A DNA stretch of 40,000 bases, taken from Prolixibacteraceae bacterium (GTDB lineage Bacteria > Bacteroidota > Bacteroidia > Bacteroidales > Prolixibacteraceae). The notes under the pieces are model-generated. The model searched no databases and had not been told where the DNA came from. It saw only the letters and a program-made list of their open reading frames with translations. The stretch spans positions 510,094 through 550,093 of the forward strand of contig CAXXHP010000004.1 of assembly GCA_963662675.2 (NCBI GenBank), read 5' to 3'. The translations under genes were made by a program, and so were the position numbers. Below, piece after piece: positions 3,439 to 29,826 of this stretch (position 1 is the stretch's first letter; each line of letters starts with the position of its first letter).

Positions 3439-3512
<74 letters not shown>

Positions 3513-3526
3513 CTTATTACACAAAA

Positions 3527-4383: not shown

Positions 4384-5517
4384 ATGAACCAAGGTAAAAC
4401 CATTACACTTACAACCTCCCTGCTGCGGCAAATGCCGGTGATTTGTATTGGTTTTGGGTGCGACAGTGAACTGGCAGCCATTGTTAAACAATTTGAAGGT
4501 ATACACTGGAGCCAGACACTTAAAACCTGGTATATGCCGAAAGAGCAATTTGACCTGAATATTATTTTTAAAACATTTAGGGGTATTGCGTGGGTAGATT
4601 ATTCAAAACTAAAGGTGAACCCGGTTTGTCAAACTAATTCAGAAAAGGAAAATAAAGATTACACACACAGAAAAAATACAAAACTCCCCAAAGGATACCT
4701 TGAGAAATTAGAGCAAAAGCGTTATAGCTCAAATACAATCAATACATATTCGGCATATTTCAAAGATTATATGCATTTTTTCAAGGACAGAGATTTGTCT
4801 CATATTCAGATTCAGGAAATCAATGATTATATTCTGTCTTTAATTCAATTGGGGAATATTTCTGGGAGTGAACAAAATCAACGGATCAATGCCATCAAGT
4901 TTTATTATGAGAAAGTATTGGGGCGGGAAAAGCAGTTCATACATATAGAAAGGCCACGAAAAGAAAAGATACTTCCAGATACGTTAAGCAAAACCGATAT
5001 ACAAGCGATTCTGGTAAAAACCGCTAACTTAAAACACAAGTGTTTACTTGAGTTAATTTACTCGGCAGGATTAAGAAGGAGTGAAGTTTTAACGATGAAA
5101 TTAACTGATATTGATTCGAAAAGGATGTTGATAAAAATACGAGGAGGTAAAGGGAAAAAGGATAGGTATTCTCTTTTATCGACAAATGTACTTGAGCATT
5201 TGAGGCAATATTTTCTTGCATATAAGCCTAAAGATCTACTATTTGAAGGACAGGGTGGCAACCAGTATTCGAGTACCAGTATTACCCGGGTGTTAAAAAA
5301 ATCGGCCGAAAAAGCAGGAATAAAGAGAAGGGTGCATTTACATATGTTGCGACATTCATTTGCCACTCATTTGCTTGAGCAGGGAACAAACCTGAGGGTA
5401 ATACAAAATCTGTTAGGGCATGAGAGTATACAAACAACAGAGATTTATACACATGTTTCAAATTTGGAAATACAAAAGGTTATCAATCCGATTGATGAAA
5501 TTATAAGCAAAACATGA
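4384..5517 (+). CDS. tyrosine site-specific recombinase (Xer/phage-integrase family), candidate cassette-array recombinase
   Basis: 377 aa. Catalytic signature readable: R in AGLRRSEV, GGKGKKDR, HMLRHSFATHLL (HxxR), LGHESIQTT, EIYTHV (Tyr). SAM-like core-binding domain (NTINTYSAYFKDYMHFF) plus a ~100-aa N-terminal extension. The stop codon lies 94 nt before the first GTTAGGT crossover-type site. Confidence 0.85.
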   Translation: MNQGKTITLTTSLLRQMPVICIGFGCDSELAAIVKQFEGIHWSQTLKTWYMPKEQFDLNIIFKTFRGIAWVDYSKLKVNPVCQTNSEKENKDYTHRKNTKLPKGYLEKLEQKRYSSNTINTYSAYFKDYMHFFKDRDLSHIQIQEINDYILSLIQLGNISGSEQNQRINAIKFYYEKVLGREKQFIHIERPRKEKILPDTLSKTDIQAILVKTANLKHKCLLELIYSAGLRRSEVLTMKLTDIDSKRMLIKIRGGKGKKDRYSLLSTNVLEHLRQYFLAYKPKDLLFEGQGGNQYSSTSITRVLKKSAEKAGIKRRVHLHMLRHSFATHLLEQGTNLRVIQNLLGHESIQTTEIYTHVSNLEIQKVINPIDEIISKT

Positions 5518-5617
5518 AATGTGTCATTTACAACGCTAATTTATTGGAAACGACACATTTTGTTACATATATAGAAAATATAATGTGCATAAATGTCCCA
5601 CTACACCTACGTTAGGT
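5518..5617 (+). other. attI-like / first recombination site of the array
   Basis: GTTAGGT at 5611-5617 preceded by ...cccactacacctac, like the L'/R' end of the attC sites. The following nt (GTTAGGTGGC) are the reverse complement of GCCACCTAAC at 7040-7049. Inverted repeat AATGTGTC 5518-5525 / GACACATT 5552-5559 lies just after the recombinase stop. Confidence 0.55.
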
Positions 5618-5684
5618 GGCATTTAAAAAAACTCTCCACTTGATGAAAATTAGATATGATTTATTGAATTAGATAAAATACAAT

Positions 5685-6344
5685 ATGAAAAAATTTATAG
5701 AATTTGAAATAAGAAATTCAGAAACAAAGCTCATTGAGCTATTGAATTTGCTTAAATCGTCGGAAACAAATAAATGGAAATTTGAAAAAAAATTGACAAA
5801 AGATTATGCCTCGAATATTTCGCTTGCGGAAGAAAATGTTGCCTGTTTTAAAGCAAATTCCACAAAGTATTTTGAAGCAACAATATGGATTGTAATAAAT
5901 GACAGTGTTTTAAAGGTCTCAAATATAGTATCAAGGAAAGTTCCCTACTTAGGAAAAGATATTTACAATCTCATTGTAACTGATTTTCACAAAGAATACG
6001 TGAGTAAATATATCACTAAAGAATATGACATTAATCTAACTTCGAATGAGGTAACAATAGAAGAAATTGCGAATAAAGAAACTGCTGACAAACTTAAAAA
6101 GTGGGAATCACTTTGTAATCGCTCGACTGGAAATTCTCATCCTTATGATAGAGAACGTTGGTTTGAATTTATCAAAACTGCTGTTGATACTAACTCTGAG
6201 TTAATGGTTGGTGATTTGGAACAATGGTTGACAGAAGAAAAAAATTGGTTTGTCGATGAAGAAAATAGTGTAACTGAGAGAATTGTTCTTGATTTTGAAT
6301 ATGGTATTGATTTATTGAAATATTATGTTGGAAAAAGTAACTAA
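5685..6344 (+). CDS. hypothetical protein (cassette 1, gene 1)
   Basis: 219-aa ORF that overlaps the next ORF by 20 nt. No motif I recognise. Confidence 0.6.
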   Translation: MKKFIEFEIRNSETKLIELLNLLKSSETNKWKFEKKLTKDYASNISLAEENVACFKANSTKYFEATIWIVINDSVLKVSNIVSRKVPYLGKDIYNLIVTDFHKEYVSKYITKEYDINLTSNEVTIEEIANKETADKLKKWESLCNRSTGNSHPYDRERWFEFIKTAVDTNSELMVGDLEQWLTEEKNWFVDEENSVTERIVLDFEYGIDLLKYYVGKSN

Positions 6345-7035
6345 GAAATCAGTAGAAAAATTTATTTCTCAATTAGAGGTTCCAGAACCTGTCTTTCTTT
6401 TTTGGGATACTTGTAGTTTGCTTGATATTATTCGCTTACCGTTCAGAACTAATTCAAAAAGACACTTAGATTTTTATCAACGAATTAAAACACTAATTGA
6501 CGAAGGTCAAATTATCTCAGTTGCTTCTGAGCTGACAATAGCCGAACTTGGTTATAACTTTCAAAAGGTTGAGCTTGAATATGATAATTACTTAAAGAAA
6601 CTGCAAAGAGATTTTAATCTTCACCAAGACTATCTAATACAATGCAATAATATAGATGAACCAATTCTTCCTTTTACATTAAGTGAAAAAGGACTAAAAC
6701 AGTATTTACTTAAATTGTTTAATGAAATAGTTTCAAAAACAACCTTTATTTCGGAGAAACAGGCATTTAATAAGTTTGCGCATTTTAGGGTTTCTTATCA
6801 TATGGCTCCTGCTCAAAAGAAAGGTGAATATAAAGATTGTTATATCTGGGCAACTTGCTTAGAGTTAGCAAAAGAGACTCCCGAAAATAGTCAAATCTAT
6901 TTTTTCACAAGAAATAAAGATGACTTCTTTGAAAATGGAAATTTATTTGAATTAATTGAAAATGATTGTAATAACACTGCAATTGACATTAAATATGAAG
7001 TTGGAGACTTATTGGGTGATATCCTGAATAATTAA
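6325..7035 (+). CDS. PIN-like domain protein (cassette 1, gene 2)
   Basis: 236 aa. Acidic residues are spaced as in PIN-like nucleases: FLFWDTCSLLD near the N-terminus, SELTIAE, KDCYIWATCLE, FFTRNKDDF. Assignment is from motif pattern only. Confidence 0.5.
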   Translation: MLEKVTKKSVEKFISQLEVPEPVFLFWDTCSLLDIIRLPFRTNSKRHLDFYQRIKTLIDEGQIISVASELTIAELGYNFQKVELEYDNYLKKLQRDFNLHQDYLIQCNNIDEPILPFTLSEKGLKQYLLKLFNEIVSKTTFISEKQAFNKFAHFRVSYHMAPAQKKGEYKDCYIWATCLELAKETPENSQIYFFTRNKDDFFENGNLFELIENDCNNTAIDIKYEVGDLLGDILNN

Positions 7036-7039
7036 AAAC

Positions 7040-7233
7040 GCCACCTAACAAAGTGTCATATGTAATGCGGGTTTCAGCGGTTTTTTAGGCTGCGGCACGT
7101 TGTTGCAACACCGCCAATTCGTCTTTGACGATTTGACGTAAAAATTGAAATACTGAATAAACGAATTGGCTACGTGCGTAATTGAAAGTTTCGTACTTTT
7201 AATCCCGCACTACACATACACAAACCGTTATGG
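7040..7233 (+). other. attC site 1
   Basis: R'' GCCACCTAAC 7040-7049. Arms aaagtgtcatatgtaatgcggg / cccgcactacacatacacaaacc. R' GTTATGG 7227-7233. Unusually long (194 bp) with an extra inner hairpin gccaattcgt...acgaattggc. Confidence 0.8.
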
Positions 7234-7260
7234 GCAAGGTTGAAAAAAGCAAAATAATGA

Positions 7261-8019
7261 ATGGACACCTTTGATTTAATTATATCGATAATTTTTATAA
7301 TTGGGATTGGATTAGTCCTTTATTTGATTTTGCGCAACCCAGTTTACATGTTCAAGACTTTTCTACGTGGACTAAAATCTCATCCCAATTGGGCTGTAAA
7401 AATTGTTTTCTCACCTATTTGGTTACCAGCCTGGTTAATTGACAGAATCTTTGGACTCAAATTATTCATTGAGGAATTTGAGGACGCTTCAAAACCAACT
7501 AAAATTTCATTCTCTGAATATGACAAGTACATATTCGTTAACTCGGCAAATTTAGTGCACATTGAGAAAGTGTTACATTCATTTGAAAGTGATTTCGACC
7601 CGACTGAGTTTAATTACCGATTGAATGGTTGTAAAATAAAAACATCTGAGTTCGGAGAAAATTTGATTTTAAAACTGGAAGGCGAAATTGAATTTAAAAG
7701 TTTCAATAGCCTTGTTCATTATCTTGACAATTCAGCTCCCAAAGACAAAGTTTACAATGTGAAAGGGATTTTGATTAATAAAAATACTAAGCCAGATTCC
7801 TATTTCATTTTTAACGACACTGCATTCACATTGAAGTTGATTGGAAAAACATATAAAAACAAAAAAATGTATGTTGACATCAATCCAGAAACTGAATTAA
7901 ATGACACGATTTTCTTTAATTCAAATATGGATTATTTTAAAAATTTCGACTTTGACAAATTTAATAATGAGATATATAGATTAAAATTAAAAGAATTGAA
8001 ATTAAAACCCAGCCCATAA
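7261..8019 (+). CDS. membrane-anchored hypothetical protein (cassette 2)
   Basis: 252-aa ORF with hydrophobic N-terminal segments (IISIIFIIGIGLVLYLIL; VFSPIWLPAWLI). The TAA stop (8017-8019) lies inside the R'' box CCATAAC. Confidence 0.6.
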   Translation: MDTFDLIISIIFIIGIGLVLYLILRNPVYMFKTFLRGLKSHPNWAVKIVFSPIWLPAWLIDRIFGLKLFIEEFEDASKPTKISFSEYDKYIFVNSANLVHIEKVLHSFESDFDPTEFNYRLNGCKIKTSEFGENLILKLEGEIEFKSFNSLVHYLDNSAPKDKVYNVKGILINKNTKPDSYFIFNDTAFTLKLIGKTYKNKKMYVDINPETELNDTIFFNSNMDYFKNFDFDKFNNEIYRLKLKELKLKPSP

Positions 8020-8146
8020 CAAATTGTAAATTGCATTGCGGGGTTCGTAGTGTGTCGTTCGCTGGATTCTCGTTTCGCAGTTCAGTCCTATCGGACATGA
8101 ACGCTCTTTGAAATCCGCAACGACAACTTACAAGTGACCGTTATGT
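8012..8146 (+). other. attC site 2
   Basis: R'' GCCCATAAC 8012-8020 (reverse complement of GTTATGGGC 7227-7235). Arms TTGTAAATTGCATTGCGG / CCGCAACGACAACTTACAA. R' GTTATGT 8140-8146. 135 bp. Confidence 0.85.
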
Positions 8147-8755
8147 TTCATTTAGAAAAAAGAGATTTTAAAATAAAAATTGCCATTATTTGTAAACGCA
8201 AGCTTTCTACTTTACATTTAAATAACTATTTTTAAAATCACAATTTAATTACTGAAACCCCCAACACACTAGGATAATATGAAAAGGTTTGTGCAGTTGA
8301 TTTTATCTAAAACGTTGGTCATTGTCTAAGTTCTTTGACTGGAATACGAAAATCGATACTTAAAAGCAGCCTAAAAAAGAATGGTTGGGGCAGATCTCGG
8401 TTTGTAAATAAAGTGCAGTCCGAAAACGAATTTCCAAAAACAGCTCTCCCACTCTTTAGTATCTGCTAACGGAATGATGAACAGCATTCTGAAACTAAGT
8501 CAATTCAGGCTGATTGATTTCTAAAATTGCCAAAGTTCAATAAAAAAAGTAGTTGCTCTCTAAGATGGTCAGCATTACAAAAATACGTTCTGAAAAGAAT
8601 ACAGAACCAGCATACATAAAAAACGAAAACATAACATATTGTCATATGGCAGGCGGGCGCTTTAGCGGTTTGACTAGTCAAACCAGTATTGCAACGTCCT
8701 TCCGGTCTGACAGGATTTCTTTGGGAAATCCCGCCCGACCACATACAAGTAACCG
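8141..8755 (+). other. ORF-less cassette 3 (615 bp)
   Basis: Bounded by G|TTATGTTT (8140) and attC3 ending G (8755). The only ORFs of 60 aa or more overlap the attC palindrome. Confidence 0.7.
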
Positions 8756-8761
8756 TTGGCG
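8627..8761 (+). other. attC site 3
   Basis: R'' AAACATAAC 8627-8635 (reverse complement of GTTATGTTT 8140-8148). Arms tatggcaggcgggcg / cccgcccgaccacata. R' GTTGGCG 8755-8761. 135 bp. Confidence 0.85.
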
Positions 8762-8862
8762 GTAATGTGAAAAAAGCCGAAAACGATTACAACAAGGCAA
8801 GATTTGACTAAAATTATCGGCTAAATACTATGGAACTTTGCATAAATCAAAAACAGATAATT

Positions 8863-15939: not shown

Positions 15940-17882
15940 ATCGAATAGCCCGCCCCGCTAGCAAATACTAGCAGGGAGAGGCTTTCACACCACCATACGT
16001 ACGGGTCTCGTATACGGCGGTTCGTTAAGTCATAGGAAACAAAACCGTACTTGGTTTTACTTGATTGTAGAGTTCCAGTAAAGAAACGTAACCACGCAAT
16101 TTCAATCTATCAACCGTAATGGTAGTACCCAGAATTGGGCTTTGTGCAATTGCCCATCCACCCATTCTGGAACGACTCCATGCATAGGCTTGACCCTGTT
16201 CAACGCCCAAACGAATCAGGTTCTTCCTTTTTCGCTCAGGCTTTTTCCAGTGGTGCCAAATGCAATAGCGAAGTCGGTTCCGCAGCCACCCATCCAGTTC
16301 AGCCAGCTTGTTTTGGATGCTTGCCATTCGGAAAGCATTAATCCATCCTCGCTGCACCTCGCCCAACTTTTCGATACGTTCATCAAAACTCATGGGAGTG
16401 GTTTTTCGGGTGAGGACTTTTAGCTTTTGCTTCAAGCTCGTCCAACTCTTTTCGGATACAACCAGTTGATATTTGCCCCGTTCGCCTTTCTTATAAGTTG
16501 GCACAAAGCCAAATCCTAAGCAGGTGAAATGTACAGGTCTGCGGATGCCGCTTTTCTCCCAATTGATCGTTAGTTTCAACTTGTTTTTAAGAAACTTAAA
16601 AATGGTGTTGCCAACCTTTCGGGCTGTTGTCTTCGTTTTAACGTAAATGCTAAAATCGTCGGCATAGCGGACAAAACGCAAACCTTGCCTTTCCAGTTCC
16701 CTGTCCAGTTCGTGCAATACGATGTTGGACAGTAAAGGACTTAATGGGCTGCCCTGCGGAACTCCCTTTCTGCGTTTGACCAGTTTCCCGTTTATTTGTA
16801 TCGGGGAACGCAGCCATTTGCGGATAAGGCGCAAGGTTTCGCGGCAGTTGATTTTGCGGTAAAGCAGTTGCAGCAGATAGCAATGGTCTACTTCATCGAA
16901 AAAGGTTTTTAGGTCAATATCTACAATGTATTGAAACCCTTGGTTGATGTAAGCCTGTGCTTTTAGGACTGCCTGACCAACGCTCCTGTTGGGACGGAAC
17001 CCAAAACTGGAGTCTGAAAACCCAAACTCGAAGCGTGCAGTAATTACTTGTAAAACCGCTTGTTGTAGCAGGCGGTCGGTTACGGTGGGAATACCGAGTA
17101 ACCTTGTTTTCCCTTTTCCTTTTAGAATTTCCACTCCTAAAATGGCTTGTGGCAAATACTTTCCCGAACGAACCTTGGCTGTCAGTTCTTCCTTGTCAAT
17201 AGACAGGAGTTCTGACAGTTTACATACGGGCATGCGGTCGACTCCTGCTGAACCGTGGTTCCGCTGGACTTTGTACATGGCCTGTAACAGGTTCTTTCGT
17301 GTTAGAATTTGATCAATCATTTTAGTTTCAATTCATTGTTTCCATGTCCCGCCTAACGCAAAGCTAGATCCTGCTCACGCAGAAAGCTTCTTTGCAGCAT
17401 TTGGGACAACTTATCGTTCAGCCCTTCAGCTTTTCTGTGAGTCCTCTGCCTTTTCTATGACAGCTCGTTTCCAAAGCCTACTATGGCCTCTGCTGACTTC
17501 TCAACTGTCCTTGCGGAAAGTTGAGACCTCCCCAGGTAAGAGCATCTTCCTTCCTCCAATCACTGCTGGATCTACTACGGAACGATTTTGGTATTCGTTG
17601 GACGTTACAATGATGTGCTTGCTTATCCTCGTCTCGTAGCCTCGTATCCAATTTCTGTTCGTCAGTACCGGAGTTTGCCGGTTGGCTTCCTTCACTGCAT
17701 ACCTCACGGTAAACCAGCTTGCCACTTGCTAACGGTTCGAAGCGTTACCTCCGCCCGTAAGGGACTTACACCCTCTGGAATAATTTCAAGATACACTTTA
17801 TTGTTTAGTAAGAAAAAGTCGTACTTTACATTCTTTTTTAAACATTGAATAAAGTGGGCACATGCTCATGCTGGGCACACAC
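15940..17882 (-). mobile_element. group II intron copy 2 (1943 nt)
   Basis: Same ends as copy 1. Inserted between ACCGCTA (15933-15939) and ACGCGGTATAGCC. A few substitutions are confined to the AT-rich 5' leader (17780-17854). Confidence 0.9.
16025..17320 (-). CDS. group II intron reverse transcriptase/maturase
   Basis: 431-aa ORF identical to copy 1. Confidence 0.95.
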   Translation of the reverse strand: MIDQILTRKNLLQAMYKVQRNHGSAGVDRMPVCKLSELLSIDKEELTAKVRSGKYLPQAILGVEILKGKGKTRLLGIPTVTDRLLQQAVLQVITARFEFGFSDSSFGFRPNRSVGQAVLKAQAYINQGFQYIVDIDLKTFFDEVDHCYLLQLLYRKINCRETLRLIRKWLRSPIQINGKLVKRRKGVPQGSPLSPLLSNIVLHELDRELERQGLRFVRYADDFSIYVKTKTTARKVGNTIFKFLKNKLKLTINWEKSGIRRPVHFTCLGFGFVPTYKKGERGKYQLVVSEKSWTSLKQKLKVLTRKTTPMSFDERIEKLGEVQRGWINAFRMASIQNKLAELDGWLRNRLRYCIWHHWKKPERKRKNLIRLGVEQGQAYAWSRSRMGGWAIAQSPILGTTITVDRLKLRGYVSLLELYNQVKPSTVLFPMT

Positions 17883-18004
17883 ACGCGGTATAGCCAATAA
17901 GGGTTTAAGTGGTATGCGAAAGGTTGTAGCCCGCTTCAACTTTTCGTGTAACTTGACAGGAAATTGCCCGCATTTCCTTACTGGCCATACCGCCAACGTT
18001 AGCC
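17883..18004 (+). other. attC site 8, right part (left part 15933-15939; split by intron copy 2)
   Basis: Rejoined R'' ACCGCTAAC is the reverse complement of GTTAGCGGT at 15111-15119. Ends ...ccataccgccaacGTTAGCC (R' 17998-18004). Closely related to attC7. Confidence 0.8.
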
Positions 18005-18027
18005 ACAATTAACAAAACCAATTCCTA

Positions 18028-18771
18028 ATGAAAGACACTAAAAAATCATATCGTAATGAAGAATGGTATCGATTTGCTAATAGTGTAAAGAAAAGAGATG
18101 GATATAAATGTACAAAATGTGGAAGAAAAGAACCAGAAGTAATATTACAAGTACACCACACAGAATATAAGAAAGGCTTAGAGCCTTGGGAATATCCTCT
18201 AAGTAATTGTATAACTGTATGTAAAGGATGTCACGCAAGAGAACATAACTTAATAGAACCGAGTAGAGGTTGGACATTAATATCAATTGAAGATTTAGAA
18301 GGTCTATATGGAGTATGTGAAAGAAAAGGTTGTGGAAGTGAAATTAGATATGAACACATAATATATCACCCTCAATGGGGATATAAATCGGTAGGTAGTA
18401 CTTGCGTTGAGTACTTAACTCAAGAAGAACAAGAATTAAGTAAAGATATTTTAAAAGTATTCAAAAAGATAAATGATTTTGTTAGTAGTTCATATTGGGA
18501 AAATGGAATAACAAAGAAAGGAAATAGCTTTATCACAACGACTCATTCTCATAATATTATTAGAATATACGGAAAAGAAAAATATTATTCTTTTCAAATT
18601 GCACTTAAAGAAAAAGGAAAAAAATGGTATGATTGGGAAAAACCGATTAAAGCCTATAATAAAGATTTGTCAACAGTTAAAGAACTAAGTTATATCGTAT
18701 TGAAAGGATTAACAAGTTATGACAATGAGGAAGTGGAAATTTTAAGAAATATATATAAGAAAATGATATAA
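18028..18771 (+). CDS. HNH endonuclease domain protein (cassette 9)
   Basis: 247 aa. N-terminal CTKCGRKEPEVILQVHHTEYKKGLEPWEYPLSNCITVCKGCHAREHN (CxxC...HH...N...CxxCHxxH). The C-terminal ~170 aa is unassigned. Confidence 0.7.
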   Translation: MKDTKKSYRNEEWYRFANSVKKRDGYKCTKCGRKEPEVILQVHHTEYKKGLEPWEYPLSNCITVCKGCHAREHNLIEPSRGWTLISIEDLEGLYGVCERKGCGSEIRYEHIIYHPQWGYKSVGSTCVEYLTQEEQELSKDILKVFKKINDFVSSSYWENGITKKGNSFITTTHSHNIIRIYGKEKYYSFQIALKEKGKKWYDWEKPIKAYNKDLSTVKELSYIVLKGLTSYDNEEVEILRNIYKKMI

Positions 18772-18781
18772 ACTGTGGCTA

Positions 18782-20754
18782 ATCGAATAGCCCGCCCCGC
18801 TAGCAAATACTAGCAGGGAGAGGCTTTCACACCACCATACGTACGCGAGCTATGCTCCTTCCTTTCGCTTTACTCAGGAACATATACGGCGGTTCGTTAA
18901 GTCATAGGAAACAAAACCGTACTTGGTTTTACTTGATTGTAGAGTTCCAGTAAAGAAACGTAACCACGCAATTTCAATCTATCAACCGTAATGGTAGTAC
19001 CCAGAATTGGGCTTTGTGCAATTGCCCATCCACCCATTCTGGAACGACTCCATGCATAGGCTTGACCCTGTTCAACGCCCAAACGAATCAGGTTCTTCCT
19101 TTTTCGCTCAGGCTTTTTCCAGTGGTGCCAAATGCAATAGCGAAGTCGGTTCCGCAGCCACCCATCCAGTTCAGCCAGCTTGTTTTGGATGCTTGCCATT
19201 CGGAAAGCATTAATCCATCCTCGCTGCACCTCGCCCAACTTTTCGATACGTTCATCAAAACTCATGGGAGTGGTTTTTCGGGTGAGGACTTTTAGCTTTT
19301 GCTTCAAGCTCGTCCAACTCTTTTCGGATACAACCAGTTGATATTTGCCCCGTTCGCCTTTCTTATAAGTTGGCACAAAGCCAAATCCTAAGCAGGTGAA
19401 ATGTACAGGTCTGCGGATGCCGCTTTTCTCCCAATTGATCGTTAGTTTCAACTTGTTTTTAAGAAACTTAAAAATGGTGTTGCCAACCTTTCGGGCTGTT
19501 GTCTTCGTTTTAACGTAAATGCTAAAATCGTCGGCATAGCGGACAAAACGCAAACCTTGCCTTTCCAGTTCCCTGTCCAGTTCGTGCAATACGATGTTGG
19601 ACAGTAAAGGACTTAATGGGCTGCCCTGCGGAACTCCCTTTCTGCGTTTGACCAGTTTCCCGTTTATTTGTATCGGGGAACGCAGCCATTTGCGGATAAG
19701 GCGCAAGGTTTCGCGGCAGTTGATTTTGCGGTAAAGCAGTTGCAGCAGATAGCAATGGTCTACTTCATCGAAAAAGGTTTTTAGGTCAATATCTACAATG
19801 TATTGAAACCCTTGGTTGATGTAAGCCTGTGCTTTTAGGACTGCCTGACCAACGCTCCTGTTGGGACGGAACCCAAAACTGGAGTCTGAAAACCCAAACT
19901 CGAAGCGTGCAGTAATTACTTGTAAAACCGCTTGTTGTAGCAGGCGGTCGGTTACGGTGGGAATACCGAGTAACCTTGTTTTCCCTTTTCCTTTTAGAAT
20001 TTCCACTCCTAAAATGGCTTGTGGCAAATACTTTCCCGAACGAACCTTGGCTGTCAGTTCTTCCTTGTCAATAGACAGGAGTTCTGACAGTTTACATACG
20101 GGCATGCGGTCGACTCCTGCTGAACCGTGGTTCCGCTGGACTTTGTACATGGCCTGTAACAGGTTCTTTCGTGTTAGAATTTGATCAATCATTTTAGTTT
20201 CAATTCATTGTTTCCATGTCCCGCCTAACGCAAAGCTAGATCCTGCTCACGCAGAAAGCTTCTTTGCAGCATTTGGGACAACTTATCGTTCAGCCCTTCA
20301 GCTTTTCTGTGAGTCCTCTGCCTTTTCTATGACAGCTCGTTTCCAAAGCCTACTATGGCCTCTGCTGACTTCTCAACTGTCCTTGCGGAAAGTTGAGACC
20401 TCCCCAGGTAAGAGCATCTTCCTTCCTCCAATCACTGCTGGATCTACTACGGAACGATTTTGGTATTCGTTGGACGTTACAATGATGTGCTTGCTTATCC
20501 TCGTCTCGTAGCCTCGTATCCAATTTCTGTTCGTCAGTACCGGGGTTTGCCGGTTGGCTTCCTTCACTGCATACCTCACGGTAAACCAGCTTGCCACTTG
20601 CTAATGCTTCCAAGCGTTACCTTGGCGCATAAGGGACTTACACCCTCTGGAATAATTTCATGCTACACTTTATTGTTTAATAAGAAAAAGTTGTACTTTA
20701 CATTCTTTTTCAAACCTTTAATAAAGTGGGCACATGCTCATGCTGGGCACACAC
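18782..20754 (-). mobile_element. group II intron copy 3 (1973 nt; domain V apex variant, domain I variant B)
   Basis: Same ends. Inserted between GTGGCTA (18775-18781) and AATGGCTCATAGG. A 38-nt segment at 18845-18882 replaces the 8-nt gggtctcg of copy 1. Covarying substitutions at 20601-20636. Confidence 0.9.
18897..20192 (-). CDS. group II intron reverse transcriptase/maturase
   Basis: 431-aa ORF identical to copy 1. Confidence 0.95.
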   Translation of the reverse strand: MIDQILTRKNLLQAMYKVQRNHGSAGVDRMPVCKLSELLSIDKEELTAKVRSGKYLPQAILGVEILKGKGKTRLLGIPTVTDRLLQQAVLQVITARFEFGFSDSSFGFRPNRSVGQAVLKAQAYINQGFQYIVDIDLKTFFDEVDHCYLLQLLYRKINCRETLRLIRKWLRSPIQINGKLVKRRKGVPQGSPLSPLLSNIVLHELDRELERQGLRFVRYADDFSIYVKTKTTARKVGNTIFKFLKNKLKLTINWEKSGIRRPVHFTCLGFGFVPTYKKGERGKYQLVVSEKSWTSLKQKLKVLTRKTTPMSFDERIEKLGEVQRGWINAFRMASIQNKLAELDGWLRNRLRYCIWHHWKKPERKRKNLIRLGVEQGQAYAWSRSRMGGWAIAQSPILGTTITVDRLKLRGYVSLLELYNQVKPSTVLFPMT

Positions 20755-20879
20755 AATGGCTCATAGGCAATGGCGGGTGGATGCTCGGTTCGCAGGTCGG
20801 ATTCCCGCACTGACTTTTGTGTCGTACCGACAGAAAGTCGCACGCAATCCGCCACTGCCCATAGCCGAGACCGTTATGT
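20755..20879 (+). other. attC site 9, right part (left part 18775-18781; split by intron copy 3)
   Basis: Arms ggcaatggcgggtgg / ccgccactgcccatagcc. R' GTTATGT 20873-20879. GTGGCTAA is the reverse complement of TTAGCCAC at 17999-18006. Confidence 0.8.
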
Positions 20880-21494
20880 TTCATTGTGTAAACAGCAGGC
20901 TAAAAACAGTCACAATTACTGTATCTTTTAAAGGATGCTAAAATGTTTTTTGAAAACCTTGGGGTTAAAAAAAATGCTGAACGCATTTTGGTTTCAGGTC
21001 TTGGAACGGTAGGACCGTGGAAGCTTGCTTCTGACGTCTGATCGACGAAAAGACCTGTCAAAGTTCCCATTTTTGTGGGACAAAGTCAAGGGGTGTAAAA
21101 ATGGAAGGACTTTTAACCCCAATTTTTCAAACAATTTTATCTTGGAAGTGATTGAAAATTTCAAGACCAAATAATGAAAAGCCTTCGGCTTTGTTGATGA
21201 AAAAATAAAATTTTCAATGGCCATCATCCATTAACGTACAGACAATCCATTCGACTATCCTTATACCAGTATAAAGTGAATAGATGGATCTTAAAGTGAC
21301 TGTTTAAAGAAAGGCCTGTTTTCACAACGCCGTTGGTTAAATAAAAAATGATAAATTTAACAACATAAACATAACAATGTGCGATATACCATAGTGGGGA
21401 CAGTGCCTCCAAGGCATCTGTTTTCCGCCCGATTGTCTTTCGTCCTGCGGACGGACAATCACACGTAAAACCACTATGGTACATGCACTATACG
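20874..21494 (+). repeat. ORF-less cassette 10 (621 bp), copy B of the duplicated cassette
   Basis: Identical to 10794-11414. Sequence diverges immediately after the GTT at 21494-21496 (GTTGTAGCGC versus GTTAACGAAC). Confidence 0.9.
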
Positions 21495-21500
21495 TTGTAG
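21367..21500 (+). other. attC site 10 (identical to attC5 up to the crossover)
   Basis: R'' AAACATAAC 21367-21375. R' GTTGTAG 21494-21500. Confidence 0.85.
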
Positions 21501-21513
21501 CGCATTAAAACAG

Positions 21514-22644
21514 ATGAGACATATAGAACAACCGAAATTAACAGAGACCTTAAAAGAGGTAATCAATCCTAAAAATGTAGCAGGAAGTGAAGCTTATAAG
21601 GTTAACACGTTTAGAGAGCTTGTCGAACATGTAGCCAAACTGGCTTATTTAAATAAAGACTATATGTTATTCTTTCGTGGACAAGGAAACGATTACAAAA
21701 ACAGGTCTGGAAATTCCAGTTTCTACCCTTCAATTTATAGAGGAGATTACTTGTCACAAGCAGAACTGAATTATAGATTTGATATACTTAATAAGTCCTC
21801 GAAAAATTTAGCTAAAATATTTGAGGAGGAACAGATTGAAGGATATAGTGAATTGAAAAGAAAGAAGTTGATTCAATGGAGTATTCTTCAACATTATGAA
21901 GTGTGTGGTACGCCATTAATGGATTTTACCCAATCACTTAGAGTTGCTTGTTCTTTTGCTCACATGGACAATGAAAATGGTAATGCATACATTTTTGTAT
22001 TTGGTTTACCATATTTGACAAATAGAATATCAACAAATTCGGAACAAGACCTATTAACAATTAGGCTTTTGAGTATTTGTCCACCAGAAGCTCTAAGACC
22101 ATATTTTCAAGAGGGGTATTTAACAGCAACGGAAGACATAACGAACGAGTATGAATCTAAAACAGAACTTGATTTTAAAAATAGGTTGATTGCAAAATTT
22201 GAAATACCTAAGACTGAGAGTTTTTGGGGCGAAGATTTCAAGATAATTCCCAAAAGTGCACTTTACCCAGACAATGATAAAGTTTTAGAAATATGCAGTA
22301 GAATAAAAGATATATCAGAAAAAGAATTATCGCCGGGTCAATTAGGTGAATTTCTATCAATTTGGTCAGAATTAGAAGAATATCTATTGAGTAATATTCA
22401 AAAACAGAATAGTCGGATTTTCAATATGAGAGAAGTTATTAATATACTCTTTAAAGAGGAAATCTTGAATCAAGATGAGTTATATCGATTCGATAGATTG
22501 CGTAAATTTAGGAATGAAGTTGTTCATAAACCCAGTAAAGTTGACTCATCACTTATTCATGAGTTTACAGAGGACTTGAAAATATTAAAAAATGAATTAA
22601 TAACGCGCTACAATCGAATAGCCCGCCCCGCTAGCAAATACTAG
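21514..22644 (+). CDS. FRG-domain protein (cassette 11), C-terminus read through into the intron
   Basis: 376 aa. MLFFRGQGNDYKN...FYPSIYRG matches the eponymous FRG motif. The last 10 codons (from 22615; IARPASKY and stop) are encoded by intron copy 4 sequence. Confidence 0.6.
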   Translation: MRHIEQPKLTETLKEVINPKNVAGSEAYKVNTFRELVEHVAKLAYLNKDYMLFFRGQGNDYKNRSGNSSFYPSIYRGDYLSQAELNYRFDILNKSSKNLAKIFEEEQIEGYSELKRKKLIQWSILQHYEVCGTPLMDFTQSLRVACSFAHMDNENGNAYIFVFGLPYLTNRISTNSEQDLLTIRLLSICPPEALRPYFQEGYLTATEDITNEYESKTELDFKNRLIAKFEIPKTESFWGEDFKIIPKSALYPDNDKVLEICSRIKDISEKELSPGQLGEFLSIWSELEEYLLSNIQKQNSRIFNMREVINILFKEEILNQDELYRFDRLRKFRNEVVHKPSKVDSSLIHEFTEDLKILKNELITRYNRIARPASKY

Positions 22645-24555
22645 CAGGGAGAGGCTTTCACACCACCATACGTACGGGTCTCGTATACGGCGGTTCGTTA
22701 AGTCATAGGAAACAAAACCGTACTTGGTTTTACTTGATTGTAGAGTTCCAGTAAAGAAACGTAACCACGCAATTTCAATCTATCAACCGTAATGGTAGTA
22801 CCCAGAATTGGGCTTTGTGCAATTGCCCATCCACCCATTCTGGAACGACTCCATGCATAGGCTTGACCCTGTTCAACGCCCAAACGAATCAGGTTCTTCC
22901 TTTTTCGCTCAGGCTTTTTCCAGTGGTGCCAAATGCAATAGCGAAGTCGGTTCCGCAGCCACCCATCCAGTTCAGCCAGCTTGTTTTGGATGCTTGCCAT
23001 TCGGAAAGCATTAATCCATCCTCGCTGCACCTCGCCCAACTTTTCGATACGTTCATCAAAACTCATGGGAGTGGTTTTTCGGGTGAGGACTTTTAGCTTT
23101 TGCTTCAAGCTCGTCCAACTCTTTTCGGATACAACCAGTTGATATTTGCCCCGTTCGCCTTTCTTATAAGTTGGCACAAAGCCAAATCCTAAGCAGGTGA
23201 AATGTACAGGTCTGCGGATGCCGCTTTTCTCCCAATTGATCGTTAGTTTCAACTTGTTTTTAAGAAACTTAAAAATGGTGTTGCCAACCTTTCGGGCTGT
23301 TGTCTTCGTTTTAACGTAAATGCTAAAATCGTCGGCATAGCGGACAAAACGCAAACCTTGCCTTTCCAGTTCCCTGTCCAGTTCGTGCAATACGATGTTG
23401 GACAGTAAAGGACTTAATGGGCTGCCCTGCGGAACTCCCTTTCTGCGTTTGACCAGTTTCCCGTTTATTTGTATCGGGGAACGCAGCCATTTGCGGATAA
23501 GGCGCAAGGTTTCGCGGCAGTTGATTTTGCGGTAAAGCAGTTGCAGCAGATAGCAATGGTCTACTTCATCGAAAAAGGTTTTTAGGTCAATATCTACAAT
23601 GTATTGAAACCCTTGGTTGATGTAAGCCTGTGCTTTTAGGACTGCCTGACCAACGCTCCTGTTGGGACGGAACCCAAAACTGGAGTCTGAAAACCCAAAC
23701 TCGAAGCGTGCAGTAATTACTTGTAAAACCGCTTGTTGTAGCAGGCGGTCGGTTACGGTGGGAATACCGAGTAACCTTGTTTTCCCTTTTCCTTTTAGAA
23801 TTTCCACTCCTAAAATGGCTTGTGGCAAATACTTTCCCGAACGAACCTTGGCTGTCAGTTCTTCCTTGTCAATAGACAGGAGTTCTGACAGTTTACATAC
23901 GGGCATGCGGTCGACTCCTGCTGAACCGTGGTTCCGCTGGACTTTGTACATGGCCTGTAACAGGTTCTTTCGTGTTAGAATTTGATCAATCATTTTAGTT
24001 TCAATTCATTGTTTCCATGTCCCGCCTAACGCAAAGCTAGATCCTGCTCACGCAGAAAGCTTCTTTGCAGCATTTGGGACAACTTATCGTTCAGCCCTTC
24101 AGCTTTTCTGTGAGTCCTCTGCCTTTTCTATGACAGCTCGTTTCCAAAGCCTACTATGGCCTCTGCTGACTTCTCAACTGTCCTTGCGGAAAGTTGAGAC
24201 CTCCCCAGGTAAGAGCATCTTCCTTCCTCCAATCACTGCTGGATCTACTACGGAACGATTTTGGTATTCGTTGGACGTTACAATGATGTGCTTGCTTATC
24301 CTCGTCTCGTAGCCTCGTATCCAATTTCTGTTCGTCAGTACCGGAGTTTGCCGGTTGGCTTCCTTCACTGCATACCTCACGGTAAACCAGCTTGCCACTT
24401 GCTAACGGTTCGAAGCGTTACCTCCGCCCGTAAGGGACTTACACCCTCTGGAATAATTTCATGCTACACTTTATTGTTTAGTAAGAAAAAGTTGTACTTT
24501 ACATTCTTTTTCAAACCTTTAATAAAGTGGGCACATGCTCATGCTGGGCACACAC
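22613..24555 (-). mobile_element. group II intron copy 4 (1943 nt)
   Basis: Same ends. Inserted between GCGCTACA (22605-22612) and AAATTGTATATGG. As far as I could compare, the sequence matches copy 1. Confidence 0.9.
22698..23993 (-). CDS. group II intron reverse transcriptase/maturase
   Basis: 431-aa ORF identical to copy 1. Confidence 0.95.
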   Translation of the reverse strand: MIDQILTRKNLLQAMYKVQRNHGSAGVDRMPVCKLSELLSIDKEELTAKVRSGKYLPQAILGVEILKGKGKTRLLGIPTVTDRLLQQAVLQVITARFEFGFSDSSFGFRPNRSVGQAVLKAQAYINQGFQYIVDIDLKTFFDEVDHCYLLQLLYRKINCRETLRLIRKWLRSPIQINGKLVKRRKGVPQGSPLSPLLSNIVLHELDRELERQGLRFVRYADDFSIYVKTKTTARKVGNTIFKFLKNKLKLTINWEKSGIRRPVHFTCLGFGFVPTYKKGERGKYQLVVSEKSWTSLKQKLKVLTRKTTPMSFDERIEKLGEVQRGWINAFRMASIQNKLAELDGWLRNRLRYCIWHHWKKPERKRKNLIRLGVEQGQAYAWSRSRMGGWAIAQSPILGTTITVDRLKLRGYVSLLELYNQVKPSTVLFPMT

Positions 24556-24680
24556 AAATTGTATATGGCAGGCGGGGGTTTTAGCGGTCTGACAAGTCAG
24601 ACCTTGCGCCAACTTTCCTGCGGGTCTGACAGGATTTCTCTTCGAAATCCCGCCCGACCACATACAAGTGACCGTTATAG
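24556..24680 (+). other. attC site 11, right part (left part 22605-22612; split by intron copy 4)
   Basis: attgtatatggcaggcggggg ... cccgcccgaccacatacaagtgaccGTTATAG (R' 24674-24680). Near-homologue of attC3. Confidence 0.8.
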
Positions 24681-24698
24681 CCTATTAAACGAAAGAAC

Positions 24699-25466
24699 AT
24701 GACAGATACATTTGATAATCAAATTCCAAGTGGAAAAATATTTAAAGACAGAGCATTTTGGGTTGGAATATTTTTGGGAGGACCATTAGTTGCAGGATAT
24801 TTATTTTCTGAGAACTTTAAAACATTTGGACAACCAGAAAAAGTTAGACCAGCTTGGATAATTTCAATCATTGTAACAATATTGATTTTTGGATTTGTAT
24901 TTCTAATCCCTGAAAATATTAATATTCCTAATCAACTTATTCCTATTATTTACACTGCAATTGCATATGGATTATTTCATAAAATTCAATCGGAAAGGGC
25001 AACTCAGCATATTAACTCAGGAGGATTAATACATAGTTGGGGCAGAGTAATTGGTGTAGGTGTGATTGGATTATTAATAACAATCTTACCAATTTTTGCA
25101 ATCGCTTATACTTATGACACAGTTGAACAAGCTAATGTTACAACTAAGACCTATGGAGCAACAGTAAAACATGAAATTGATTTTGATAAAAATAATATTA
25201 CAGAAAAGGAAGTAGATTTAATTGCAGACGGTTTTATTGAAACTGGATTTTTTGACTTATCAGTTGCAAAGTATGTTTACGTTGTTAAAAATGAGAATAA
25301 ATATGAATTATATATTTCAGTAATAAGGGGAATAGAGAATGACCAAGTTGCACTTCAACCATTTATTGAATTAAGGTCGCAAATGGATGTTTACATTCCT
25401 AATATGAAAGTAGAAATGAAATTAGTTGTAGATTATATTGAAAATGTAGTAAAAACCTTGAAATAA
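24699..25466 (+). CDS. integral membrane protein, unknown function (cassette 12, gene 1)
   Basis: 255 aa with about four hydrophobic helices in the N-terminal half and a soluble C-terminal half. Confidence 0.6.
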   Translation: MTDTFDNQIPSGKIFKDRAFWVGIFLGGPLVAGYLFSENFKTFGQPEKVRPAWIISIIVTILIFGFVFLIPENINIPNQLIPIIYTAIAYGLFHKIQSERATQHINSGGLIHSWGRVIGVGVIGLLITILPIFAIAYTYDTVEQANVTTKTYGATVKHEIDFDKNNITEKEVDLIADGFIETGFFDLSVAKYVYVVKNENKYELYISVIRGIENDQVALQPFIELRSQMDVYIPNMKVEMKLVVDYIENVVKTLK

Positions 25467-25867
25467 TGAATTTTAGAGCATCATTTTGTGACCCATTCAA
25501 GTCTGACATTATAGAAATGGGCGACTTTGAAAAGGATAAAATAATGGAAACTTTTGAAAAAATTCCATGGAACAAACTTCTTGATGAAATGAAGACGAAA
25601 AAAGAAAGTGAAATACACTACTCGCCTTCATTAGAAATTGAGAATAAGGACAACAAAAATGGACTTTCTGTTTCTGCGGTTGATGGAAAAGAATGGTACA
25701 TCTTTTTTAAAAGACCCAAAATGGTTAAGAAATTTTTCGGATTATCTGAAAAAATGAATAATGATTATTTGACAGATATAAAGGGGCAAACTGAAAATGA
25801 TGTTAAGGAGTGTTTGACCGCTTTAATTAATAATGACTTGGAATTTCTAGAAAGAAAGATAAAATAA
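25466..25867 (+). CDS. hypothetical protein (cassette 12, gene 2)
   Basis: 133 aa. TAATG stop/start overlap with the upstream ORF suggests translational coupling. Confidence 0.55.
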   Translation: MNFRASFCDPFKSDIIEMGDFEKDKIMETFEKIPWNKLLDEMKTKKESEIHYSPSLEIENKDNKNGLSVSAVDGKEWYIFFKRPKMVKKFFGLSEKMNNDYLTDIKGQTENDVKECLTALINNDLEFLERKIK

Positions 25868-25876
25868 CAGGCTATA

Positions 25877-27819
25877 ATCGAATAGCCCGCCCCGCTAGCA
25901 AATACTAGCAGGGAGAGGCTTTCACACCACCATACGTACGGGTCTCGTATACGGCGGTTCGTTAAGTCATAGGAAACAAAACCGTACTTGGTTTTACTTG
26001 ATTGTAGAGTTCCAGTAAAGAAACGTAACCACGCAATTTCAATCTATCAACCGTAATGGTAGTACCCAGAATTGGGCTTTGTGCAATTGCCCATCCACCC
26101 ATTCTGGAACGACTCCATGCATAGGCTTGACCCTGTTCAACGCCCAAACGAATCAGGTTCTTCCTTTTTCGCTCAGGCTTTTTCCAGTGGTGCCAAATGC
26201 AATAGCGAAGTCGGTTCCGCAGCCACCCATCCAGTTCAGCCAGCTTGTTTTGGATGCTTGCCATTCGGAAAGCATTAATCCATCCTCGCTGCACCTCGCC
26301 CAACTTTTCGATACGTTCATCAAAACTCATGGGAGTGGTTTTTCGGGTGAGGACTTTTAGCTTTTGCTTCAAGCTCGTCCAACTCTTTTCGGATACAACC
26401 AGTTGATATTTGCCCCGTTCGCCTTTCTTATAAGTTGGCACAAAGCCAAATCCTAAGCAGGTGAAATGTACAGGTCTGCGGATGCCGCTTTTCTCCCAAT
26501 TGATCGTTAGTTTCAACTTGTTTTTAAGAAACTTAAAAATGGTGTTGCCAACCTTTCGGGCTGTTGTCTTCGTTTTAACGTAAATGCTAAAATCGTCGGC
26601 ATAGCGGACAAAACGCAAACCTTGCCTTTCCAGTTCCCTGTCCAGTTCGTGCAATACGATGTTGGACAGTAAAGGACTTAATGGGCTGCCCTGCGGAACT
26701 CCCTTTCTGCGTTTGACCAGTTTCCCGTTTATTTGTATCGGGGAACGCAGCCATTTGCGGATAAGGCGCAAGGTTTCGCGGCAGTTGATTTTGCGGTAAA
26801 GCAGTTGCAGCAGATAGCAATGGTCTACTTCATCGAAAAAGGTTTTTAGGTCAATATCTACAATGTATTGAAACCCTTGGTTGATGTAAGCCTGTGCTTT
26901 TAGGACTGCCTGACCAACGCTCCTGTTGGGACGGAACCCAAAACTGGAGTCTGAAAACCCAAACTCGAAGCGTGCAGTAATTACTTGTAAAACCGCTTGT
27001 TGTAGCAGGCGGTCGGTTACGGTGGGAATACCGAGTAACCTTGTTTTCCCTTTTCCTTTTAGAATTTCCACTCCTAAAATGGCTTGTGGCAAATACTTTC
27101 CCGAACGAACCTTGGCTGTCAGTTCTTCCTTGTCAATAGACAGGAGTTCTGACAGTTTACATACGGGCATGCGGTCGACTCCTGCTGAACCGTGGTTCCG
27201 CTGGACTTTGTACATGGCCTGTAACAGGTTCTTTCGTGTTAGAATTTGATCAATCATTTTAGTTTCAATTCATTGTTTCCATGTCCCGCCTAACGCAAAG
27301 CTAGATCCTGCTCACGCAGAAAGCTTCTTTGCAGCATTTGGGACAACTTATCGTTCAGCCCTTCAGCTTTTCTGTGAGTCCTCTGCCTTTTCTATGACAG
27401 CTCGTTTCCAAAGCCTACTATGGCCTCTGCTGACTTCTCAACTGTCCTTGCGGAAAGTTGAGACCTCCCCAGGTAAGAGCATCTTCCTTCCTCCAATCAC
27501 TGCTGGATCTACTACGGAACGATTTTGGTATTCGTTGGACGTTACAATGATGTGCTTGCTTATCCTCGTCTCGTAGCCTCGTATCCAATTTCTGTTCGTC
27601 AGTACCGGGGTTTGCCGGTTGGCTTCCTTCACTGCATACCTCACGGTAAACCAGCTTGCCACTTGCTAATGCTTCCAAGCGTTACCTTGGCGCATAAGGG
27701 ACTTACACCCTCTGGAATAATTTCATGCTACACTTTATTGTTTAATAAGAAAAAGTTGTACTTTACATTCTTTTTCAAACCTTTAATAAAGTGGGCACAT
27801 GCTCATGCTGGGCACACAC
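25877..27819 (-). mobile_element. group II intron copy 5 (1943 nt; domain I variant B)
   Basis: Same ends. Inserted between GGCTATA (25870-25876) and ACAGTACATATTG; rejoining gives GGCTATAAC. Standard domain V, but the same domain I substitutions as copy 3. Confidence 0.9.
25962..27257 (-). CDS. group II intron reverse transcriptase/maturase
   Basis: 431-aa ORF identical to copy 1. Confidence 0.95.
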   Translation of the reverse strand: MIDQILTRKNLLQAMYKVQRNHGSAGVDRMPVCKLSELLSIDKEELTAKVRSGKYLPQAILGVEILKGKGKTRLLGIPTVTDRLLQQAVLQVITARFEFGFSDSSFGFRPNRSVGQAVLKAQAYINQGFQYIVDIDLKTFFDEVDHCYLLQLLYRKINCRETLRLIRKWLRSPIQINGKLVKRRKGVPQGSPLSPLLSNIVLHELDRELERQGLRFVRYADDFSIYVKTKTTARKVGNTIFKFLKNKLKLTINWEKSGIRRPVHFTCLGFGFVPTYKKGERGKYQLVVSEKSWTSLKQKLKVLTRKTTPMSFDERIEKLGEVQRGWINAFRMASIQNKLAELDGWLRNRLRYCIWHHWKKPERKRKNLIRLGVEQGQAYAWSRSRMGGWAIAQSPILGTTITVDRLKLRGYVSLLELYNQVKPSTVLFPMT

Positions 27820-29812: not shown

Positions 29813-29826
29813 AGAACGAACGCCCA

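Follow-up and report, generated by a model that had tools for sequence, protein, structure and literature searches.

A Xer-like tyrosine recombinase outside the IntI family as the probable integrase of an integron-type cassette array in Prolixibacteraceae

Results

The DNA analysed here (the window) is a stretch of 40,000 nucleotides (nt) from a Prolixibacteraceae bacterium (GenBank assembly GCA_963662675.2, contig CAXXHP010000004.1, forward-strand positions 510,094 to 550,093), and all coordinates below are counted from its first letter. An open reading frame (ORF) at 4384-5517 on the forward strand, running from ATG to stop, encodes a tyrosine recombinase of 377 amino acids (aa) and is followed by an attI-like site (5518..5617, +) and by a row of 13 cassettes with attC-type sites that extends to 31900. 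The element sits between asnA/tRNA-Arg on one side and iorAB-like genes on the other, and the genome around it has its closest relatives in Prolixibacteraceae (Marinilabiliales). On the evidence set out below, we consider this gene to be quite probably the cognate integrase of a chromosomal integron-type platform, one that would work much as classical integrons do with an enzyme from outside the IntI family.

Pfam places a core-binding domain (SAM_4, PF13495) at aa 106-182 and a catalytic domain (PF00589, 6.9e-40) at aa 203-359 of the recombinase, together spanning 4699..5460 on the forward strand. The complete R-K-HxxR-H-Y active site read from the sequence in the original prediction stands, as R231, K256, H320, R323, H346 and Y355 are invariant in an alignment of 31 family members. 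Two further statements made there also hold: a family profile run against every ORF segment of 60 aa or more in the six frames found no second recombinase in the window, and transcription of the gene runs the same way as that of the cassette ORFs, a co-orientation that is the rule in the family and is seen at every homologue locus with an array. The N-terminal extension of ~100 aa is likewise real, since alignments to Xer and IntI proteins all start at query aa 102-108. In an AlphaFold2 (AF2) model (mean predicted local distance difference test, pLDDT, 83.8; ~85-90 for the N-terminal domain) it forms an extra alpha/beta domain at aa 1-78 (4384..4617, +), with the order b-b-a-b-b-a-b, and a disordered linker to ~aa 100. 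Judged from sequence and predicted fold, the enzyme is a "simple" Xer-type tyrosine recombinase consisting of core-binding and catalytic domains plus this N-terminal domain.

Relatives are numerous. A database search returned at least 8000, all 8000 scored having E below 1e-20, with a typical length of 373-379 aa, and a scan limited to one genome per species yielded 80 loci at 38-57% identity (designated by L numbers where they need to be told apart). These loci come from Marinilabiliales, Cytophagales, Flavobacteriales, Sphingobacteriales and Bacteroidales, together with a few metagenome-assembled genomes (MAGs) labelled otherwise.

What the family lacks is the insertion that characterizes integron integrases. 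The last residue of GGKGKKDR is aa 261 and the first of HMLRHSFA is aa 320, which leaves exactly the predicted interval of 58 aa; in VchIntIA (PDB 2a3v) it measures 101 aa, longer as had been expected of IntI proteins, by 43 aa rather than 35-40. The HMMER alignment between query and 2a3v breaks into two segments (108-292 = 12-199 and 296-371 = 243-318), and VchIntIA residues 200-242, the 43 aa at the position of the IntI-specific domain, have no counterpart in the recombinase. Scored against models, the protein falls short of a bona fide IntI: the integron integrase model TIGR02249 reaches 198.8, below its cutoff of 265, with the match broken into two parts, and NF011946 gives 121 against 435. 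Of 73 locus homologues, 71 keep an interval of 58-59 aa, as do 118 of the 119 top database matches; no insertion-bearing member was seen among ~190 sequences, and the position equivalent to W157 is unconserved.

Directly after the recombinase stop codon lies the attI-like site, recognized by sequence inspection, by its equivalents 3' of homologues and by the fact that cassette 1 starts here. It contains an inverted repeat (AATGTGTCATTT / AAACGACACATT) at 5518-5529 and 5549-5560, and a third, direct copy AATGTGCAT at 5582-5590. Its core reads cactacacctac G|TTAGGT, in which crossover falls at 5611|5612. The GTTAGGT at 5611-5617 is indeed the first such site after the gene, as originally predicted, and lies 93 nt, not 94 nt, past its stop. 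As evidence, the bare GTTAGGT or GTTRRRY motif was discarded as uninformative alone. The window holds 4 copies of GTTAGGT with 3.8 expected, a frequency no higher than chance; significance rests on the complementarity of the cassette boundaries.

Our criteria for attC were a self-built chain procedure, which starts at G 5611, seeks a 9-mer complement of the cassette start and then looks for paired arms, and a self-built covariance model (R1). The chain procedure recovered 12 consecutive cassettes from G 5611 to 27939, in which the R'' 9-mer complements the cassette start perfectly in 10 cases and with one mismatch in 2. In the first link, the recombinase-adjoining site GTTAGGTGGC pairs with GCCACCTAAC of attC1. 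Complementarity between the start of a cassette and its own R'' is a consequence of crossover at G|TT, in classical integrons and here, and because cassette 1 starts at G|TT 5611 and matches its own R'' at 10/10 positions, insertion took place at the attI-like site beside the recombinase. A second signature is found within the array, where cassettes 5 and 10 (10794-11414 and 20874-21494) are identical at 621 of 621 nt up to the G|TT boundaries, beyond which their flanks differ; exact copies that end at the predicted crossovers are the expected trace of recent site-specific duplication. The 621-nt unit has no convincing forward ORF and only short reverse-strand ORFs.

Homologues elsewhere proved to be followed by attC arrays, as the prediction had proposed to check, and both the attI-like core and the co-oriented array recur across the family. 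In most loci an attI-like site is present 50-160 nt past the stop codon, where lineage-specific inverted and direct repeats precede a conserved ...ACAYAYAC GTTRRRY core, and arrays follow homologues in Marinilabiliales, Cytophagales, Flavobacteriales and Bacteroidales. Chains of at least 3 cassettes occur solely downstream, namely 15 in Chryseolinea (L058), 11 in Draconibacterium (L013), 10 and 9 in Ekhidna (L077 and L070), 8 in Marinifilum (L024) and 4 each in Rufibacter (L067) and Flavobacterium (L074), while some 150 upstream control scans never gave more than 2 cassettes. The covariance model R1, which describes the ~130-nt class of attC, gave 85 matches at E <=0.01 in 1.11 Mb, 83 of them downstream and 2 upstream, with 84 of the 85 on the strand of the recombinase gene; 22 loci that had no part in the training set have matches. 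In total, at least 27 homologue loci, besides the window itself, pair the recombinase gene with an attI-like site and cassettes. Contigs also end within 1 kb far more often downstream (32/80 loci) than upstream (4/80), an excess that is expected from repeats that break assemblies.

The only upstream R1 matches (L024 7954-8144 and L018 2767-2847) may be the tail of another array or of a second element. An apparent cassette chain at L044 was rejected as spurious, its "attC" sequences not being palindromic.

These data bear on the possibility that the array is a cluster of attC sites lacking integron integrases (CALIN), served in trans by a canonical IntI elsewhere, while the Xer-like gene beside it is a bystander with some other role. 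Such an account would accommodate both the report that canonical IntI enzymes depend on the additional domain (cited in PMC9668308) and the fact that, among NCBIfam models, XerA fits the recombinase best. It would not lead one to expect that a bystander keeps its place, direction and spacing in four orders, together with an attI-like site that co-varies, nor the insertion of cassette 1 at the site directly after the recombinase gene. Integron surveys, moreover, report from Bacteroidetes only In0 or isolated cases, with complete IntI-type integrons nearly absent. We therefore regard the bystander account as very improbable.

The attC sites themselves are imperfect palindromes of 50-290 nt with the arrangement R''-L''...L'-R' and RYYYAAC ... 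GTTRRRY ends, in which structure is conserved over sequence. A duplex-energy scanner for attC found ~3 real sites in the window and was dropped as too insensitive for AT-rich, bulged arms, and RNAalifold gave no consensus on a MAFFT alignment of 9 untrimmed attCs; a set of 17 trimmed attCs of ~130 nt from 5 genomes was used instead. On this set RNAalifold predicts 16 stem pairs, 15 of which show compensatory double changes. In arm alignments of 75 attC sites, the '' side has a spacer of ~3 nt and the ' side one of 5-6 nt, a conserved asymmetry. On the top strand of the same sites, an A on the '' arm faces a C on the ' arm in 125 cases, compared with 25 cases of the reverse. Such positions are A.C mismatches on the top strand and G.T wobbles on the bottom strand, and for this reason the bottom strand folds more stably in 66 of the 75 sites (p = 3.6e-12); the weak arm-pairing filter by which the sites were chosen somewhat biases their covariation and leaves the strand asymmetry unselected. 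We infer that the attC substrate is single-stranded.

Six group II introns, all antisense to the cassettes, have entered attC sites of the array at the same TA|AC position inside R''. Copy 1 (13051..14993, -; 1943 nt) has an intact 431-aa reverse transcriptase (RT)/maturase and was identified by Rfam (RF02001, RF01998) and by its RVT_1 and GIIM domains. The others were found with Rfam on the same strand: copy 2 (15940..17882; 99.7% identical to copy 1), copy 3 (18782..20754; 1973 nt, 98.0%), copy 4 (22613..24555; 100%), copy 5 (25877..27819; 99.5%) and copy 6 (29827..31848; 92.8%), which is degenerate with a broken ORF. That five introns are 98-100% identical, with an intact 431-aa RT/maturase, suggests recent retrohoming. 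In integrons, group IIC-attC introns target the bottom strand of attC and lie antisense to the cassettes (PMC3001079). R'' boxes adjacent to introns often read AAA or ACA instead of AAC.

Recombination between duplexes is the obvious alternative to folded strands, the enzyme then moving cassettes by an Xer-type reaction in the style of XerC/D-dependent dif modules. The protein is Xer-like and is without the IntI segment that contacts extrahelical bases, and XerA and XerD act on duplex dif sites. A duplex substrate would leave it unexplained, however, that structure, and not sequence or length (51-290 nt), is what stays constant among attC sites, with compensatory changes at nearly every stem pair, that the G.T versus A.C asymmetry favours one folded strand, and that the sites were colonized by introns of the kind that targets folded attC bottom strands. 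A duplex mechanism seems quite improbable to us on these grounds.

Where the recombinase comes from is a separate question. Archaeal XerA_Arch (NF040815), whose product name hedges with "integron integrase", is the top and sole NCBIfam model to pass its cutoff, by a margin of just 2.7 bits (222.7 vs 220), the XerD (195.6, cutoff 329.6) and XerC (191.3, cutoff 335) models both falling far short. The family profile searched against PDB has the archaeal XerA structures 4a8e and 5hxy as its top matches (187 and 181 bits), with IntI at 175 bits, and both lie far above XerD. These scores stand against the view that the family is a true IntI lineage that has secondarily lost the additional domain, as does the want of any insertion-bearing member noted above. 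Such a loss would be compatible with the mechanism proposed here, and it would fit with VchIntIA being the best single-sequence PDB match and about equal to archaeal XerA as the best match to the AF2 fold, with the TIGR02249 score attained despite the missing segment, with the IntI-type SAM_4 N-domain, and with the statement of Smyshlyaev et al. that the insertion is "not fully conserved" within their integron-like subgroup. We hold it to be unlikely, if well conceivable; by hidden Markov model (HMM) and profile scores the family is roughly as far from IntI as from XerA, so that it may have either lost the insertion secondarily or been recruited independently.

For the N-terminal domain, searches gave neither a Pfam family nor a significant fold match in PDB, and weak similarities to HARP and XPB-DRD (E 0.2-0.3) are no more than a lead. 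A profile of the domain matched 1987 cluster representatives, at or near the N-terminus in nearly all among the 150 matches listed. Relatives of ~280-296 aa without it still head arrays (L070 and L077 of Ekhidna, L031, L039, L041, L055, L076, L079), the Ekhidna loci having 9-10 cassettes with unusually long attC sites of ~234 nt, so that the domain is common yet dispensable for array association and is ruled out as a general replacement for the IntI insertion. Some members of 430-620 aa (L061 and L067 of Pontibacter and Rufibacter, P0187, P0239 and others) match the profile two or three times, which suggests tandem N-terminal domains.

Family members from Bacteroides-type arrays connect this system to a described one. 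Ross et al. 2019 (bioRxiv 10.1101/471110; PMC12247911) reported Bacteroidales polyimmunity arrays, termed rAID-1 (recombinase-associated acquired interbacterial defence), with an XerD-family recombinase and intergenic repeats "reminiscent of integrons". They define rAID-1 by an XerD-like recombinase at the 5' end that shares 44% or more identity with BF9343_RS08045, at least 2 co-directional downstream genes with a guanine-cytosine (GC) content <=41%, orphan interbacterial immunity proteins and a Bacteroidales host. Between the window protein and its counterpart in P. barnesiae DSM 18169, a rAID-1 strain of their Table S7, identity is 49% (E 2e-103), a value for this pair and not for BF9343_RS08045; this strain and Paraprevotella xylaniphila YIT 11841, also from Table S7, account for two of the scanned loci. 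The P. barnesiae gene (L042) is followed by ten co-directional ORFs including Imm43, Imm5 and Imm-NTF2. By sequence comparison, the Bacteroides-type homologues (45-50% identity) are rAID-1 recombinases. When the crossover base is relaxed to A or G, their arrays display the same boundary complementarity, with hairpins of 53-57 nt and crossover at A|TT. The window array is itself low in GC (33.4% over the 13 cassettes without introns) and in this, with its co-directional genes, resembles rAID-1; Pfam detected no Imm-family immunity genes among the window cassettes.

Five loci (L043, L044, L045, L066 and L040, from Phocaeicola, Parabacteroides, Alistipes, Paraprevotella and a MAG whose label, Oscillospiraceae, probably reflects a binning error) have the 3' end of the recombinase and its flank in common, without a difference as far as "gatagtataac", after which they part at once. 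The pattern is what the spread of a single recombinase allele among gut genera would give, and Table S7 of Ross et al. agrees with it.

The cassettes of the window all lie on the forward strand and, unless noted, were delimited by both the chain procedure and R1, with Pfam for the named domains. Cassette 1 (5612..7233) holds ORFs 5685-6344 and 6325-7035 (PIN_12) and attC1 (7043-7233, 191 nt), whose R'' CCACCTAAC reverse-complements the start of the cassette and which scores 55.6 bits with R1. It is followed by cassette 2 (7228..8146; ORF 7261-8019, attC2 8014-8146), cassette 3 (8141..8761; no convincing ORF, attC3 8629-8761), cassette 4 (8756..10799; NmrA-like 8830-9726, AraC-type 9741-10652, attC4 10669-10799) and cassette 5 (10794..11420; attC5 11289-11420), the duplicate of cassette 10. 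Cassette 6 (11415..11846) was found by the chain alone and has an unusually long attC6 (11561-11846, ~285 nt); it is only 426 nt in length, and a questionable reverse-strand ORF at 11415-11762 (115 aa, no Pfam match) crosses the attC loop and R''.

Five of the next six cassettes have an attC split by an intron. Cassette 7 (11841..15117) encodes a methyltransferase (11891-12514) and a GNAT protein (12575-13051) and has an intron-split attC7 (13046-15117). Cassette 8 (15112..18004) has ORF 15170-15904 and an intron-split attC8 (15935-18004); cassette 9 (17999..20879) encodes an HNH protein (18028-18771), and its intron-split attC9 (18777-20879) has an R'' that ends in AAA, not AAC. Cassette 10 (20874..21500; attC10 21369-21500) is the copy of cassette 5. 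Cassette 11 (21495..24680) carries an FRG / HepT-like gene (21514-22644) and an intron-split attC11 (22608-24680), and cassette 12 (24675..27945) has ORFs 24699-25466 and 25466-25867 and an intron-split attC12 (25872-27945). Cassette 13 (27940..31900; Pfam, inspection), with an AAA_21 ATPase (28018-29394), ORF 29372-29812 and half an attC from ~29819, ends the array: only the 5' half (R''/L'') of its attC is present, split by the sixth intron, no L'/R' half was found for it and R1 has no match past 27945. This truncated attC precedes iorAB-like housekeeping genes (32136-34555). The cargo as a whole, with PIN, NmrA-like, AraC, methyltransferase, GNAT, HNH, FRG/HepT-like and AAA_21 ATPase proteins, is typical of chromosomal integrons.

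Upstream of the recombinase, a tRNA-Arg(TCT) gene (3439..3513, +; ARAGORN, Rfam RF00005) provides context only. The unit does begin 870 nt past it, counted to the ATG, as originally described, and this is no feature of the family, in which a tRNA lies within 1.5 kb upstream at 4 of 53 homologue loci. One could take the recombinase for the integrase of a genomic island at tRNA-Arg and the downstream DNA for its cargo, given the 870-nt distance and the four other loci with an upstream tRNA. Set against this, 49 of the 53 loci are without one, no tRNA-derived direct repeat bounds the region, and the downstream DNA consists of 13 units with integron-type boundaries. An island of this kind is hardly credible, and tRNA targeting, or the tRNA as a part of the system, was rejected in favour of incidental adjacency. 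The 870 nt between the tRNA and the recombinase (3514-4383) contain only short unsupported ORFs (3717-4034, +; 4021-4263, -) and could be a promoter/regulatory region or a remnant.

Members of the family are also found on plasmids of Bacteroidota. On the Chryseobacterium sp. SNU WT5 plasmid NZ_CP041688.1 (L082, 8956-18996), a recombinase annotated as "site-specific tyrosine recombinase/integron integrase" has four R1 attC matches downstream on the same strand, in an array that also has IS110 and an antisense group II intron RT. On the Acinetobacter indicus plasmid p80-1-2-tetX3 (NZ_CP041297.1; L081, 5028-7200), a 5'-truncated member of 221 aa lies directly upstream of, and co-oriented with, tet(X3). 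This "xerD/tpnF" fragment is 52.7% identical to aa 146-371 of the window protein and occurs on many Acinetobacter plasmids. An attI-like repeat (ATACGCC-attt-GGCGTAT) and the core cacttGTTATGTGCC are positioned 13 nt before the tet(X3) ATG, and 3' of the tet(X3) stop there is a possible short attC, which is ambiguous as its R'' matches the cassette start at just 7/10 positions. The recurrent adjacency of xerD and tet(X) has been left unexplained in the literature; a truncated member upstream of tet(X3) may be a hint that clinically important resistance genes left Bacteroidota by way of such a system.

Discussion

The original prediction envisaged an integron-like platform driven by a tyrosine recombinase that is not an IntI, and this is supported by the anatomy of the array, the position of cassette 1 at the attI-like site, the linkage across the family and the absent insertion. 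A functional link between gene and array is strongly supported by these comparisons, and we infer that the recombinase protein is the catalyst of cassette movement. The enzyme would bind its own attI just past its stop codon, where family-specific inverted and direct repeats are followed by ...ACAYAYAC G|TTRRRY, and would also bind attC hairpins (50-290 nt, RYYYAAC ... GTTRRRY) folded from the bottom strand. Strand exchange at G|TT would then insert circular cassettes at attI and excise them by attC x attC recombination, as in classical integrons, and the element as a whole may be viewed as a sedentary chromosomal integron-like element with a resident integrase.

Several considerations weigh against this proposal. 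Integron recombination reportedly requires the additional domain of IntI (Messier & Roy 2001, cited in PMC9668308 and PMC4889954), and a different mode of hairpin recognition must therefore be assumed for the present family. Where 5 kb or more could be scanned downstream, neither of our self-built detectors found an attC at about one third of the loci (L001, L011, L050, L057, L061, L064 and others). The window is a view of 40 kb of the genome, so a canonical IntI could act on the array from elsewhere. Finally, part of the array may no longer be mobile, since its last attC is truncated and several intron-adjacent R'' are degenerate.

Beyond this locus, the balance tips slightly towards a broader proposal, that Bacteroidota hold a second, phylum-wide class of integrons in which Xer-type integrases without the IntI domain recombine folded attC sites at G|TT. 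If true, this class would include the abundant rAID-1 arrays of the human gut, the copies on plasmids and possibly the "xerD" found beside tet(X) tigecycline-resistance genes. The extra domain of IntI, around patch III, defines integron integrases, underlies the intI_Cterm profile by which IntegronFinder detects them and is held necessary for the recombination of folded attC sites. Surveys that require it would then miss the integrons of a whole phylum and mislabel their arrays as orphan CALINs, and censuses would need revision. The IntI domain would also not be the sole structural solution for recombination at hairpin sites, and a concrete mechanism would be on offer for the "biogenesis" of rAID-1, which a 2025 paper still called unknown; over half of gut Bacteroidales carry such arrays.

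Compared with classical integrons (IntI1, VchIntIA), the system shares a recombinase adjoining attI and followed by an array of mostly promoterless cassettes, attC palindromes with RYYYAAC ... GTTRRRY ends, an unpaired spacer, a variable loop and crossover at G|TT, cargo that includes GNAT, PIN and HNH proteins, ATPases and regulators, and antisense group II introns within attC. It differs in its integrase, which is without the ~43-aa IntI domain, has the W157 position unconserved and usually carries an extra N-terminal domain. It also differs in layout: the gene here is co-oriented with the cassettes and attI lies past its stop codon, whereas classical integrons have a divergent promoter region with the promoter Pc in intI/attI. 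Integrons with an "inverted" intI, as reportedly in Treponema denticola (for Treponema integrons see PMC3607928), share an integrase co-transcribed in the cassette direction, and this integrase is said to be a bona fide IntI with the additional domain.

The introns resemble the group IIC-attC introns of integrons (PMC3001079) in their bottom-strand target, their position at the 5' end of attC, their antisense orientation, the separation of a gene from its attC and their RVT_1 and GIIM domains, a likeness by placement and ORF rather than by phylogeny; six copies in one array are unusually many. With archaeal XerA, and with XerC/XerD at dif, the recombinase has core-binding and catalytic domains without an insertion in common. 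It differs from them in its extra N-terminal domain and XerC/XerD scores far below the cutoffs, and in that the family is tied to an attI-like site and an array instead of a single dif, with multiple copies per genome and copies on plasmids.

Also among the closest described systems is rAID-1, which shares a 5' recombinase of the same family, co-directional low-GC short genes and repeated intergenic motifs. Its hosts are Bacteroidales, and the present one belongs to Prolixibacteraceae, counted as Marinilabiliales, with no Imm genes detected; attC sites here are ~130-290 nt with G|TT crossover and group II introns, those of the Bacteroides type 53-57 nt with A|TT. The rAID-1 publications describe the clusters and their immunity function, not recombination sites or mechanism, and in the openly available literature (subscription journals lay outside the search) we found no paper that calls the sites attC or notes the missing IntI domain. 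The integron as a type of system and the association of this family with arrays, as rAID-1, are thus already known. What appears not to have been combined before is the attI/attC anatomy, the spread beyond Bacteroidales and immunity cargo, and the family-wide lack of the IntI domain.

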